From: a virus
Lineage: Duplodnaviria; Heunggongvirae; Uroviricota; Caudoviricetes
Length of the DNA: 5,572 nucleotides
Strand: one strand, 5' to 3'
IMG/VR virus record: IMGVR_UViG_2698536418_000006
Coordinates: 1 to 5,572 of that record
The position numbers and the translations under genes are program-made. This document shows, piece after piece, positions 1 to 5,572 of the stretch (position 1 is its first letter; every line of letters begins with the position of its first letter). The notes under the pieces are model-generated. The model was not told where the DNA came from. It ran no database searches and saw nothing but the letters and a program-made list of their open reading frames with translations.

Positions 1-1
1 C

Positions 2-382
2 CGGAAACTGGTAAAGGAACGGTCCAGACTGAAACGGGCCACGGTCAGAAATCCGAATGCCAGAATTATCGTTAACCGCGGTGATCTCCCGGTGATTAAG
101 CTGGGGATCAGGATGCCGGGGCGTCGTCCGGACAGCATACTCAAAGCCGGTCAGCATCGTTATCAGCGGGCATTTATTCAGCGATTAAAAAATGGTCGCT
201 GGCATGTCATGCAGCGTGTGGCCGGGAAAAACCGTTACCCCATTGATGTGGTGAAAATCCCGATGGCGGCCCCACTGAAACAGGCGTTTGATGAGAATGT
301 TGACCGTATCCGGCGTGAACGCCTGCCCGGAGAACTGGCATATGCGCTGAAACAACAACTGAGGATTGCGATAAAACGATGA
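2..382 (+). CDS. Z: Minor tail / tail completion protein Z, 5' partial (runs off the window start)
   Basis: Frame 2 is open from nt 2 with no stop; the track ORF at 92 begins at an internal GTG. The stop TGA 380-382 overlaps the U start (ATGA). Its position immediately upstream of U matches the lambda order; I do not recall the Z sequence itself as well as the others. Confidence 0.8.
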   Translation, partial: RKLVKERSRLKRATVRNPNARIIVNRGDLPVIKLGIRMPGRRPDSILKAGQHRYQRAFIQRLKNGRWHVMQRVAGKNRYPIDVVKIPMAAPLKQAFDENVDRIRRERLPGELAYALKQQLRIAIKR

Positions 383-774
383 AACATACTGATATCCGTG
401 CTGCAGTGCTGGATGCACTGGAGCTGCATGAACACGGGGCGACGCTGTTTGATGGTCGCCCCGTTGTTTTTGACGAAGAGGATTTTCCCGCGGTCGCGGT
501 TTATCTGACGGATGCAGAGTATACCGGTGAAGAGCTGGATGCGGATACCTGGCGGGCCACACTGCATATTGAAGTTTTCCTGCCTGCTCAGGTGCCGGAT
601 TCAGAGCTGGATTCGTGGATGGAGTCCCGGATTTATCCGGCGATGTCCGCGATCCCTGCACTGGCAGGGATGATTACCACGATGGTTCAGCAGGGCTATG
701 ACTATCGTCGTGATGACGATATGGCGTTATGGAGCTCTGCAGATTTGACTTATTCCATTACATACGAGATGTGA
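379..774 (+). CDS. U: Tail terminator (tail tube-terminating) protein U, 131 aa
   Basis: 131-aa ORF, the same length as lambda gpU, with near-identical blocks as I recall them ([79 protein letters not shown]). ATG overlaps the Z stop. Confidence 0.95.
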
Positions 775-781
775 GGACGAT

Positions 782-1534
782 ATGCCAACACCAAATCCCC
801 TGGCGCCGGTAAAAGGTGCCGGTACCACTCTGTGGGTTTACACCGGCAAGGGTGATGCTTATGCAAACCCGTTGTCAGATGATGACTGGCAGCGACTGGC
901 TAAGGTGAAGGATCTGACGCCGGGCGAGATGACGGCAGAATCCTACGATGATAACTACCTGGATGATGAAGACGCGGACTGGAGCGCGACCGGGCAGGGA
1001 CAGAAATCTGCAGGTGATACCAGTTTTACACTGGCCTGGAAACCGGGAGAAGAAGGTCAGAAAGGGCTTATAGGCTGGTTTGAAAGCGGGGATGTGCGGG
1101 CCTATAAAATCCGTTTTCCGAATGGCACGGTGGATGTGTTTCGTGGCTGGATCAGCAGTATCGGTAAGGCAGTGACGGCGAAAGAAGTGATCACCCGAAC
1201 AGTGAAAGTGACCAACGTGGGCAAACCTTCCGTGGCGGAAGAACGCAGCGAAATTACGCCGGCCACTGCAATTAAGGTGACACCGACATCCGGTACCGTG
1301 GAAAAAGGAAAAACAACCACCCTGACTGTTTCTTTTGAGCCGGAAAGTGCAACCGACAAGACGTTCAGAGCGGTTTCCGCCGATCCGTCGAAAGCCACCA
1401 TTAGTGTGAAAGATATGACAATTACGGTAAACGGCGTGGCGACAGGTAAGGTGCAGATCCCTGTGGTGAGCGGAAATGGTCAGTTCGCCGCAGTGGCTGA
1501 AGTCACCGTTACTGAAGCGGGCGCTGCAGGGTAA
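782..1534 (+). CDS. V: Major tail tube protein V, 250 aa
   Basis: Lambda gpV-like sequence and position. GAGGA at 771-775 lies 6 nt upstream of ATG 782. The C-terminal third is T/V/S-rich and beta-strand-like, consistent with the Ig-like domain of gpV. Confidence 0.95.
1253..1516 (+). other. V: C-terminal Ig-like (Big_2-type) domain of the major tail protein V, about residues 158-245
   Basis: The segment [87 protein letters not shown] has the alternating hydrophobic/T/S pattern of bacterial Ig-like domains; lambda gpV is known to carry one at its C-terminus. Boundaries are approximate. Confidence 0.7.
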
Positions 1535-1536
1535 AC

Positions 1537-1541
1537 GGAGG
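1537..1541 (+). promoter_or_regulatory. Shine-Dalgarno (GGAGG) for G, 6 nt upstream of ATG 1548
   Basis: Direct read of the sequence acGGAGGtaatacATG. Confidence 0.75.
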
Positions 1542-1547
1542 TAATAC

Positions 1548-1979
1548 ATGTTTCTGAAAACAGAACAATTTGAATATAACGGTGTGTCCGTCACGCTTTC
1601 CGAGCTGTCTGCGCTGCAGCGTATTGAGCATCTTGCCCTCCTGAAACGGCGTGCAGAACAGGCAGAATCCAGCGGCAACCTGCAGGTAAGCGTGGAAGAT
1701 CTCGTCAGAACCGGCGCGTTTCTGGTGGCGATGTCCCTGTGGCATAACCATCCGCAGAAAACGGCATCACCGTCAATGAATGAGGCTGTGATGCAGATCG
1801 AACAGGAGGTGCTCACCACCTGGCCTGCGGATGCCATTGCCCGGGCGGAAGATGTGGTGTTGCGTCTGTCCGGGATGAGCGGGGCTGTTCATGCGGATAC
1901 TGACAGCACCGAAGTGGCGAAAAATAACGCACTGACTGATGATGATTTTTCTGCGGGAAAGTCTTCGACGGCGAGCTGA
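1548..1979 (+). CDS. G: Tail assembly chaperone G, 143 aa
   Basis: Lambda gpG-like sequence (MFLKTE.FE.NGV.VTLSELSALQRIEHLAL.KR.AEQAES, RTGAFLVAMSLWHNHPQKT, SMNEAV.QIEQEVLTTWP, ending SAGK.ST.S). The slippery heptamer sits 6 codons before the stop TGA 1977-1979. Confidence 0.93.
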   Translation: MFLKTEQFEYNGVSVTLSELSALQRIEHLALLKRRAEQAESSGNLQVSVEDLVRTGAFLVAMSLWHNHPQKTASPSMNEAVMQIEQEVLTTWPADAIARAEDVVLRLSGMSGAVHADTDSTEVAKNNALTDDDFSAGKSSTAS

Positions 1980-2419
1980 ATTTTGCCCTCAGACTGGCGC
2001 GTGAGATGGGGAGGCCTGACTGGCGCGCCATGCTTGCCGGGATGACATCCACCGAATATGCCGACTGGCGACATTTTTACCGTACGCATTATTTTCACGA
2101 TACCCAACTGGATATGCATTTTTCCGGGCTGACGTACGCCGTACTCAGCCTGTTTTTTTGCGATCCGGATATGCATCCCTCTGATTTCAGTCTGCTTGCC
2201 CCCCGGCGTGAGGAAGCGCAGACGGAGATGCCGGATGAGGAAAAAATGCTGATGCAGAAAGCGGCAGGACTTGCCGGAGGCGTACGGTTTGGTGGGGACG
2301 GAGGGCGTGAGATTTTATCGTCTGCGGATGTGGCGGATGTCAGCGAGGATGATGTCGCATTAATGATGGCTTCAGCGGGGATTCCGGGAGGTGTGAGATA
2401 TGTCCCAGCCGGTTGGTGA
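1548..2419 (+). CDS. T: Tail assembly chaperone G-T fusion made by the -1 frameshift at 1955-1961 (G frame 1548..1961 joined to the -1 frame 1961..2419); about 290 aa
   Basis: After the slip the -1 frame reads VFDGELNFALRLAREMGRPDWRAMLAGMTSTEYADW...GGVRFG...GGVRY, matching lambda gpT as I recall it. T has no independent start near the slip. Its stop TGA 2417-2419 overlaps the H start by 20 nt. Confidence 0.9.
1955..1961 (+). promoter_or_regulatory. Programmed -1 ribosomal frameshift slippery heptamer G GGA AAG (X XXY YYZ)
   Basis: GGGAAAG at 1955-1961 is phased in the G frame as G|GGA|AAG. The -1 frame opens at 1946 (after TGA 1943-1945) and runs to 2419. This is the same heptamer and arrangement as the lambda G/GT frameshift. 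Confidence 0.9.
2387..2391 (+). promoter_or_regulatory. Shine-Dalgarno (GGAGG) for H, 8 nt upstream of ATG 2400, inside the 3' end of T
   Basis: Direct read of the sequence ccgGGAGGtgtgagatATG. Confidence 0.7.
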
Positions 2420-4289
2420 TCTTGTTATTGACCTGAGTCTGGATGCGGTCCGTTTCGATGAGCAGATGAGCCGGGTAAGGCGTCATTTTTCCGGACTGGA
2501 GACTGACGCCAGAAAAACCGCCGGTGTCGTTGAGCAGAACCTGAGTCGTCAGGCGCTGGCTGCACAAAAAGCCGGGATTTCCGTCGGGCAGTATAAAGCG
2601 GCCATGCGAACCCTGCCCGCACAGTTTACGGATATCGCCACGCAGCTTGCCGGTGGTCAGAATCCCTGGCTGATCCTGCTGCAACAGGGCGGTCAGGTGA
2701 AGGACTCCTTCGGCGGGATGATCCCCATGTTCAGGGGACTTGCCGGTGCGATCACCCTGCCGATGGTGGGGGCCACCTCGCTGGCGGTGGCGACCGGTGC
2801 GCTGGCGTATGCCTGGTATCAGGGCAACTCAACCCTGTCCGATTTCAACAAAACGCTGGTCCTTTCCGGCAATCAGGCGGGACTGACGGCAGATCGTATT
2901 CTGGCCCTGTCCAGAGCCGGGCAGGCGGCAGGGCTGACGTTTAACCAGACCAGCGAGTCACTGACGGCGCTGGTGAATGCCGGTGTGCGTGGTGGTGAGC
3001 AGTTTGAGGCGATCAGCCAGAGTGTGGCGCGTTTCTCCTCTGCATCCGGCGTGGAGGTGGACAAGGTCGCTGAAGCCTTCGGGAAGCTGACCACAGACCC
3101 GACGTCGGGACTGACAGCGATGGCACGTCAGTTCCATAACGTGACGGCGGAGCAGATTGCGTATGTTGCTCAGTTGCAGCGTTCCGGAGATGAAGCCGGG
3201 GCATTGCAGGCGGCGAACGAGGCCGCAACGAAAGGGTTTGATGACCAGACCCGCCGCCTGAAAGAGAACATGGGCACGCTGGAGACCTGGGCAGACAGGA
3301 CTGCGCGGGCATTCAAATCCATGTGGGATGCGGTGCTGGATATCGGTCGTCCTGATACCGCGCAGGAGATGCTGATTAAGGCAGAGGCTGCGTTTAAGAA
3401 AGCAGACGACATCTGGAATCTGCGCAAGGATGATTATTTTGTTAACGATGAAGCGCGGGCGCGTTACTGGGATGATCGTGAAAAGGCCCGTCTTGCGCTT
3501 GAAGCCGCCCGAAAGAAGGCTGAGCAGCAGACTCAACAGGACAAAAATGCGCAGCAGCAGAGCGATACCGAAGCGTCACGGCTGAAATATACCGAAGAGG
3601 CGCAGAAGGCTTACGAACGGCTGCAGACGCCGCTGGAGAAATATACCGCCCGTCAGGAAGAACTGAACAAGGCACTGAAAGACGGGAAAATCCTGCAGGC
3701 GGATTACAACACGCTGATGGCGGCGGCGAAAAAGGATTATGAAGCGACGCTGAAAAAGCCGAAACAGTCCGGCGTGAAGGTGTCTGCGGGCGATCGTCAG
3801 GAAGACAGTGCTCATGCTGCCCTGCTGACGCTTCAGGCAGAACTCCGGACGCTGGAGAAGCATGCCGGAGCAAATGAGAAAATCAGCCAGCAGCGCCGGG
3901 ATTTGTGGAAGGCGGAGAGTCAGTTCGCGGTACTGGAGGAGGCGGCGCAACGTCGCCAGCTGTCTGCACAGGAGAAATCCCTGCTGGCGCATAAAGATGA
4001 GACGCTGGAGTACAAACGCCAGCTGGCTGCACTTGGCGACAAGGTTACGTATCAGGAGCGCCTGAACGCGCTGGCGCAGCAGGCGGATAAATTCGCACAG
4101 CAGCAACGGGCAAAACGGGCCGCCATTGATGCGAAAAGCCGGGGGCTGACTGACCGGCAGGCAGAACGGGAAGCCACGGAACAGCGCCTGAAGGAACAGT
4201 ATGGCGATAATCCGCTGGCGCTGAATAACGTCATGTCAGAGCAGAAAAAGACCTGGGCGGCTGAAGACCAGCTTCGCGGGAATGGCTGA
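2400..4289 (+). CDS. H: Tail tape measure protein H, 629 aa as encoded; C-terminally truncated by an out-of-frame duplication junction at 4282/4283
   Basis: N-terminus (M..PVGDLV.DLSLDA.RFDEQM.RVRRHFSG), a hydrophobic segment (GGMIPMFRGLAGAITLPMVGATSLAVATGALAYAWY) and a long K/E/Q/A-rich helical region match lambda gpH. The ORF ends ...AAEDQLRGNG* at TGA 4287-4289, where lambda H continues for about 225 more residues in my recollection. Confidence 0.92.
   Translation: MSQPVGDLVIDLSLDAVRFDEQMSRVRRHFSGLETDARKTAGVVEQNLSRQALAAQKAGISVGQYKAAMRTLPAQFTDIATQLAGGQNPWLILLQQGGQVKDSFGGMIPMFRGLAGAITLPMVGATSLAVATGALAYAWYQGNSTLSDFNKTLVLSGNQAGLTADRILALSRAGQAAGLTFNQTSESLTALVNAGVRGGEQFEAISQSVARFSSASGVEVDKVAEAFGKLTTDPTSGLTAMARQFHNVTAEQIAYVAQLQRSGDEAGALQAANEAATKGFDDQTRRLKENMGTLETWADRTARAFKSMWDAVLDIGRPDTAQEMLIKAEAAFKKADDIWNLRKDDYFVNDEARARYWDDREKARLALEAARKKAEQQTQQDKNAQQQSDTEASRLKYTEEAQKAYERLQTPLEKYTARQEELNKALKDGKILQADYNTLMAAAKKDYEATLKKPKQSGVKVSAGDRQEDSAHAALLTLQAELRTLEKHAGANEKISQQRRDLWKAESQFAVLEEAAQRRQLSAQEKSLLAHKDETLEYKRQLAALGDKVTYQERLNALAQQADKFAQQQRAKRAAIDAKSRGLTDRQAEREATEQRLKEQYGDNPLALNNVMSEQKKTWAAEDQLRGNG
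2667..4282. repeat. Tandem direct repeat, copy 1 (complete 1616-bp unit covering H codons 90-628)
   Basis: 2667..3956 aligns base-for-base with 4283..5572 at a constant 1616-nt offset, with no indels at any point I checked. Confidence 0.95.
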
Positions 4290-5572
4290 TCCTGCTGCAA
4301 CAGGGGGGGCAGGTGAAGGACTCCTTCGGCGGGATGATCCCCATGTTCAGGGGGCTTGCCGGTGCGATCACCCTGCCGATGGTGGGGGCCACCTCGCTGG
4401 CGGTGGCGACCGGTGCGCTGGCGTATGCCTGGTATCAGGGCAACTCAACCCTGTCCGATTTCAACAAAACGCTGGTCCTTTCCGGCAATCAGGCGGGACT
4501 GACGGCAGATCGTATGCTGGTCCTGTCCAGAGCCGGGCAGGCGGCAGGGCTGACGTTTAACCAGACCAGCGAGTCACTCAGCGCACTGGTTAAGGCGGGG
4601 GTAAGCGGTGAGGCTCAGATTGCGTCCATCAGCCAGAGTGTGGCGCGTTTCTCCTCTGCATCCGGCGTGGAGGTGGACAAGGTCGCTGAAGCCTTCGGGA
4701 AGCTGACCACAGACCCGACGTCGGGACTGACAGCGATGGCACGTCAGTTCCATAACGTGACGGCGGAGCAGATTGCGTATGTTGCTCAGTTGCAGCGTTC
4801 CGGAGATGAAGCCGGGGCATTGCAGGCGGCGAACGAGGCCGCAACGAAAGGGTTTGATGACCAGACCCGCCGCCTGAAAGAGAACATGGGCACGCTGGAA
4901 ACCTGGGCAGACAGGACAGCACGGGCATTCAAATCCATGTGGGATGCGGTGCTGGATATTGGTCGTCCTGATACCGCGCAGGAGATGCTGATTAAGGCAG
5001 AGGCCGCGTTTAAGAAAGCGGACGATATCTGGAATCTGCGCAAGGATGATTATTTTGTTAACGATGAAGCGCGGGCGCGTTACTGGGATGATCGTGAAAA
5101 GGCCCGTCTTGCGCTTGAAGCCGCCCGAAAGAAGGCTGAGCAGCAGACTCAACAGGACAAAAATGCGCAGCAGCAGAGCGATACCGAAGCGTCACGGCTG
5201 AAATATACCGAAGAGGCGCAGAAGGCTTACGAACGCCTGCAGACGCCGCTGGAGAAATATACCGCCCGTCAGGAAGAACTGAATAAGGCACTGAAAGACG
5301 GGAAAATCCTGCAGGCAGATTACAACACGCTGATGGCGGCGGCGAAAAAGGATTATGAAGCGACGCTGAAAAAGCCGAAACAGTCCGGCGTGAAGGTGTC
5401 TGCGGGCGATCGTCAGGAAGACAGTGCTCATGCTGCCCTGCTGACGCTTCAGGCTGCACTCCGGACGCTGGAGAGGCATGCCGGAGCAAATGAGAAAATC
5501 AGCCAGCAGCGCCGGGATTTGTGGAAGGCGGAGAGTCAGTTCGCGGTACTGGAGGAGGCGGCGCAACGTCGC
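4283..5572. repeat. Tandem direct repeat, copy 2 (first 1290 bp visible; continues beyond the window)
   Basis: Repeats tggctgatcctgctgcaacag...gcggcgcaacgtcgc of copy 1 with scattered substitutions and one divergent patch. Confidence 0.95.
4283..5572 (+). pseudogene. H: Second copy of the tape measure coding sequence (H residues 90 to about 519), open in frame 2 to the window edge with no in-window stop; out of frame with upstream H. Either a disrupted H remnant or an N-terminally truncated H if expressed from an internal start.
   Basis: Frame 2 translates as WLILLQQGGQVKDSFGGMIPMFRGLAGAITLPMVGATSLAV... through ...QFAVLEEAAQRR with no stop from 4265 to 5572. The first in-frame candidate starts are GTG 4313 and ATG 4334. 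It is absent from the ORF track only because it has no stop in the window. Confidence 0.55.

Follow-up and report, generated by a model that had tools for sequence, protein, structure and literature searches.

The window analysed here, a 5572-nt stretch of DNA, is very probably a scaffold join of two pieces of the tape-measure gene H that carry different alleles, combined with known phage mosaicism, and not a tandem duplication that has diverged. We propose that the source was a draft assembly of an E. coli strain, apparently made by short-read graph assembly, and that the strain probably carried several lambdoid prophages. The scaffolder would have joined two separately assembled H pieces across a single unknown base. 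Piece 1 (H nt 1-1882) would be attached to the Z-U-V-G-T genes of a 12A-type prophage, and piece 2 would consist of H nt 268-1557. An apparent 1616-bp tandem repeat and a truncated H of 629 codons would then be products of the join, and the pieces would differ because they represent different co-resident H alleles.

Gene content and the junction at position 4282

We observed that the window encodes a lambda-type tail module with the gene order Z-U-V-G-T-H, all on the + strand, and that nearly all of it has matches in lambda and in lambdoid prophages. The left end of the contig falls within the minor tail gene Z, whose 3' part (1-382; Pfam Minor_tail_Z, E 1.4e-41) is identical to that of the E. 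coli O111:H2 12A prophage. It is followed by the tail terminator gene U (379-774; Pfam Phage_tail_U, E 2.8e-61), the major tail tube gene V with a C-terminal Ig-like domain (782-1534; Pfam Phage_TTP_12, Big_2) and the tail assembly chaperone genes G and T (1548-2419; Pfam Phage_TAC_2, Phage_tail_T). G occupies 1548-1979, and the T frame is open over 2006-2419. The slippery heptamer GGGAAAG, read as G GGA AAG in the G frame, lies at 1955-1961, so that the lambda G/T -1 frameshift site is conserved. G and T themselves are of a divergent type despite this conserved heptamer.

H stands directly after the G/T pair with its -1 frameshift site, the place expected of the gpH family. Piece 1 occupies 2400-4281 (H nt 1-1882), and piece 2, the second allele, runs over 4283-5572 to the contig end (H nt 268-1557). 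Both carry the Pfam TMP_2 domain (PF06791; E 1.6e-70 in piece 1, 1.7e-51 in piece 2), which lies in the N-terminal third of H. A Tape_meas_lam_C domain and a complete frame of ~853 aa were not found in the window, where only H nt 1-1882 and 268-1557 are present; relatives have an intact H of 853-859 aa with PF09718. A self-complementary stretch, CCCGACGTCGGG, which contains GACGTC, lies inside H in both pieces (3094-3113 and 4710-4729). It was reported by the repeat finder as an "inverted repeat" and suggested no function.

The window is the entire 5572-bp contig CYCB01000096.1 (range 1-5572) of the draft assembly GCA_001283405.1, which we located through an exact match to the V protein. We compared it with the public record and found agreement at 5571 of 5572 positions. 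The sole mismatch was at 4282, the repeat junction, where we directly observed an N in the record ("gcgggantggctg") and an A in the window. Since the record has N at this position, we interpret 4282-4282 as a scaffold gap (no strand assigned), across which two assembly pieces, H nt 1-1882 and H nt 268-1557, were joined. The gap character stands at the join within a draft contig. The pieces share no overlapping sequence there, and no sequence crosses 4282, so the junction has not been sequenced across.

Across the join, H nt ~1883 is followed by H nt 268, giving an apparent repeat period of 1616 that is out of frame. We observed that rendering the N as A created a spurious codon and a downstream stop at 4287-4289; the 629-codon truncated H and its stop are thus a read-through of the N. 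An exact look-up of the 629-aa H product returned no record, as expected because the public record has N at 4282 and its product would contain an X.

We searched for the junction using an exact 32-mer and a pattern allowing 0-8 junction bases, with which an in-frame version was also detectable. None of the 5,426 complete E. coli genomes had a site matching a 120-nt junction probe over 80% or more of its length. The junction was also absent from INPHARED phage records and from GTDB species representatives, IMG/VR and JGI metagenomes. Related genomes gave no independent support for it, and the relatives have a single-copy H. The sequence-only reading had started from a tandem duplication within one gene, a premise that these findings do not support. 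Its list of origins also included a merger of two prophages by the assembly; given an N in the record at the junction base and no occurrence of the junction in any collection searched, that is the best fit among them.

These data bear on whether the joint could be genuine, that is, formed by unequal non-homologous recombination from H nt ~1883 of one prophage to H nt 268 of another, with the N hiding it. We consider this unlikely. The scaffolder did place the pieces adjacent, with an apparent gap of ~0; scaffolders rely on read-pair links, and a real tandem structure would yield such links too. Standing allelic variation between the copies would also follow directly from one unequal exchange between different alleles. 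However, a genuine joint would be expected to leave unique junction sequence in one of the pieces, and none is there. At the join the pieces instead stop at apparent allele branch points and share nothing, and the junction is absent from all collections searched. Furthermore, any single base at the N gives a period of 1616 (3n+2), which would destroy H.

Three other ideas were rejected. A Campbell-like single-crossover insertion of a 1616-bp lambda-type circle and a replication template-switch event are both unneeded given the scaffold gap, and survive only as forms of a genuine joint. The third was a TGG microhomology joint in which correcting a 1-nt sequencing error would restore the frame; it was set aside on finding 0 mismatches in 3283 nt compared to 12A and an N as the base concerned.

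We also assessed where the pieces end. The last base of piece 1, H 1882, directly precedes a common SNP at H 1883 (G in 51 and A in 25 of n = 76 alleles). A divergent N-terminal module has its last site at H 267, and piece 2 begins on the next base, H 268. Both look like places where a two-allele assembly graph would branch. Piece 2 ends at H 1557, and the polymorphic sites closest to this end in the sample (H 1563-1566) are 6-9 nt away. Since it is not directly beside a polymorphic site, the branch-point argument is supportive only. Genomes that carry the gene have a median of 2 H copies and up to 7, with 6 in strain 12A, and other draft assemblies of related prophages likewise break within or near H. 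These data suggest that the window is a join of two assembled allele pieces.

Allelic composition of the two pieces

An ungapped comparison of 2667-3956 with 4283-5572 showed that 37 of 1290 nt differ, and that 19 of the 37 differences fall within 49 nt (2963-3011 in piece 1, 4579-4627 in piece 2). When 37 differences were placed at random 200,000 times, the densest 49-nt span held at most 11 (mean 4.9; P < 5e-6). The concentrated patch of divergence described in the sequence-only reading was therefore real, and the pairwise alignment it had proposed showed clustered rather than uniform differences. The patch corresponds to H nt 564-612, inside the TMP_2 domain, and accounts for 8 of the 12 amino-acid differences between the stretches (H residues 189-204). 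Of the 18 differences elsewhere, 14 are synonymous.

We observed that the patch in piece 1 (2963-3011, + strand) is the 12A/O157-type version, with codons for TALVNAGVRGGEQFEA and 19 differences from the lambda version. The patch in piece 2 (4579-4627, + strand) has codons for SALVKAGVSGEAQIAS and is identical to lambda H. The peptides quoted from the sequence for copy 1 and copy 2 were exact (SLTALVNAGVRGGEQFEAIS vs SLSALVKAGVSGEAQIASIS, RILAL vs RMLVL and ELRTLEKH vs ALRTLERH). They had been accompanied by the statement that the copy-2 versions are those of lambda H. This was correct for the patch and for RMLVL, but not for ELRTLEKH/ALRTLERH (sites at H nt 1442 and 1460), where the copy-1 version is the one in lambda.

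By a wide margin, the closest relative was the prophage of E. coli O111:H2 strain 12A (NZ_CP077479.1, 1925901-1930861). Window positions 1-3283 are identical to it, with 0 mismatches, and piece 2 from 4900 on differs from it at only 2 sites. Over 3284-3859, piece 1 differs from 12A at 15 sites, and piece 2 agrees with 12A at 13 of these 15. In 12A and in relatives with an identical V protein, H is single and intact, with no repeat (2562 nt in 12A).

Piece 1 begins with a divergent N-terminal module of the 12A/O157 type (H nt 1-267, window 2400-2666). This module differs from lambda at 59 sites (~22%) and matches the 12A and O157 types. A sharp mosaic boundary lies inside H at nt 267/268, the same edge where piece 2 begins. 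From nt 268 onward, H alleles are 97-100% identical.

We then followed allele markers along both pieces. In piece 1 they are 12A-type through 3188 (H 789) and lambda-type from 3284 (H 885). In piece 2 they are lambda-type through 4627 (H 612) and 12A-type from 4726 (H 711). Allele identity thus reverses between the pieces, from 12A to lambda in piece 1 and from lambda to 12A in piece 2, a pattern that the first reading had overlooked. Copy-2 states at 3284-3701 occur in the related prophages 12A, L086 and L094 and, for the most part, in L091; they are absent from piece 1. One further site, 3344 (H nt 945), has C in piece 1, and T in piece 2 and in 85 of 85 natural alleles; the change is synonymous (ATC/ATT). 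The C is either a private substitution or an assembly error.

The longest stretch identical between the pieces spans 272 nt (3012-3283, + strand; counterpart 4628-4899), and a breakpoint scan placed the swap of allele phase inside it. As they stand, the pieces show 7 and 11 differences from the nearest natural alleles in the sample. Swapping the pieces anywhere in 3012-3283 reduced these to 2 and 4 differences, a sharp minimum, and the swapped pieces resolved to the 12A allele and the commonest lambda-type allele. These sequence comparisons make the pieces look like reciprocal chimeras, each combining a 12A-type with a lambda-type allele. The claim that the stretches derive from different lambdoid H alleles was accordingly upheld by the allele comparison.

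The reciprocal pattern is most simply read as an assembly-graph path switch within 3012-3283. The parts of each piece beyond the patch would then be a reciprocal 12A-type/lambda-type mix, produced by a switch of path inside the 272-nt identical stretch. The swap could also be a real recombination between co-resident prophages. With regard to a genuine joint, the lambda-type tract is contiguous across the join (3284-4627) and has 12A-type sequence on both flanks, which counts in favor of such a joint; such a tract is likewise compatible with insertion by a single crossover or with template switching.

A recent tandem duplication of one H allele, followed by gene conversion from another prophage with the patch as a short conversion tract, is very improbable. 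Both versions of the patch are common, so donors are available, and short block-wise exchange of the patch clearly occurs in nature. This explanation nevertheless requires a real duplication, and both the N at 4282 and the failure to find the junction in other sequences count against one. In addition, the 18 sites beyond the patch follow the reciprocal two-allele pattern, and several separate conversions would be needed. We therefore retain the joining of two alleles during assembly as the most probable origin of the repeat.

The 49-nt patch in the natural H gene pool

To place the patch in the H gene pool, we used a sample of n = 85 natural alleles, comprising 80 IMG/VR loci together with lambda, 12A and three other E. 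coli prophages. We directly observed its population structure: the 49-nt patch occurs as two haplotype families, sharp-edged and discrete, with no intermediates and only private single changes. SNPs flanking the patch occur in nearly all combinations among the 85 alleles. Both versions are found with both types of N-terminal module; 027_SK3, for instance, has the copy-1 patch behind a lambda-type N-terminus. Diversity in the population sample, taken over H nt 1-2300, is at its maximum at H 551-600.

Complete E. coli genome records with an exact 73-nt match number 645 for the copy-1 version and 1,902 for the copy-2 version. The idea that the patch diverged after duplication, by a local burst of mutation, has the clustering in its favor and nothing further. 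It is already refuted, and its probability is close to nil: for both versions, all 19 patch states already occur together as intact haplotypes across independent genomes that number in the hundreds to thousands. The patch is a length-preserving 49-nt cassette, probably old, whose two versions each segregate as a unit in the natural H pool. The sequence-only reading had called it a mosaic signature, which agrees with this two-version cassette.

We assessed a possible donor of the copy-1 version. The 859-aa O157-type H (O157:H7) shares 65-90% identity with lambda along most of its length, carries a copy-1-like patch and is a plausible donor lineage in which the block sits in a uniformly divergent gene. 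Over H 541-600, identity to the O157-type H is 88% for 12A and 68% for lambda. Because the copy-1 patch resembles this divergent 859-aa H, these sequence likenesses suggest that it was imported by recombination from an O157-type-like lineage, with the direction of the ancestral import as the more conjectural part. The patch difference between the pieces would then reflect an old two-version cassette, one version being that of lambda and the other resembling the 859-aa O157-type H lineage. A third, related version of the patch was found in more divergent H genes. The patch probably has little functional consequence.

Several side observations concern the same genes. In four loci of the O157 type (L088, L089, L092 and L096), V is identical to that of the window and the 859-aa H is only 65-90% identical over most of its length; an identical V alongside a divergent H indicates that V and H have been reassorted between lineages. 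A second and much stronger peak of H diversity lies near the 3' end, beyond the window (nt ~2300-2550, loci L006-L085). Its maximum, at nt 2351-2400, is 0.28 per site, and it points to a further exchanged module toward the C-terminus. In a further related prophage (L087; GCA_900448305.1, UARW01000010.1), located in a 5.3-Mb contig, the head and tail genes are split into many short reading frames, with an 878-aa H call. The fragmented frames look like assembly indel errors rather than biology.

Significance and comparison with known systems

The main value of this analysis is as a caution: a single N shown as A made a scaffold join seem to be an out-of-frame tandem duplication, with diverged copies, in a tape-measure gene. 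For scans of draft assemblies, near-identical repeats at the ends of prophage contigs, and likewise any masked N, are candidates for artefacts. The biological residue is modest and consists of a freely reassorting 49-nt two-version cassette (residues 189-204) in lambdoid H. The cassette appears traceable to a more divergent tape-measure lineage, and is a small example of intragenic mosaicism. If the joint were genuine after all, two co-resident lambdoid prophages would have produced a hybrid tape-measure gene with a 1.6-kb partial duplication. It would be the unselected, defective raw product of the illegitimate recombination that is thought to produce phage mosaicism.

Compared to lambda, whose H (gpH, 853 aa) carries TMP_2 and Tape_meas_lam_C, the window has the same Z-U-V-G-T-H order and the same G/T heptamer. 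It is 97-100% identical to lambda H from nt 268, and the patch in piece 2 is identical. In contrast, H nt 1-267 and the upstream genes are divergent, with H there ~73-87% identical in 60-nt windows; piece 1 has a non-lambda patch, and the C-terminal third of H lies off the contig.

For contigs that are predicted to touch or overlap, but that turn out to have no overlap, some scaffolders (SSPACE, for example) write a single n at the join. The window resembles such one-base-gap scaffold joins in draft short-read assemblies. It has a single N exactly at the join and is likewise a 5.6-kb contig in a repeat-rich prophage region. Its two piece ends at the join look like allele branch points, the far end of piece 2 less so.

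Hendrix and colleagues reportedly described the genes of lambdoid phages as mosaics of sharp-edged segments swapped by recombination, and intragenic mosaicism of the kind seen in the patch is already well known. Like lambdoid mosaicism in general, the patch has sharp edges, with haplotypes ~39% apart, flanks 97-100% identical and free reassortment. Unlike the modules exchanged at gene boundaries, it is a 49-nt, intragenic and length-preserving cassette.
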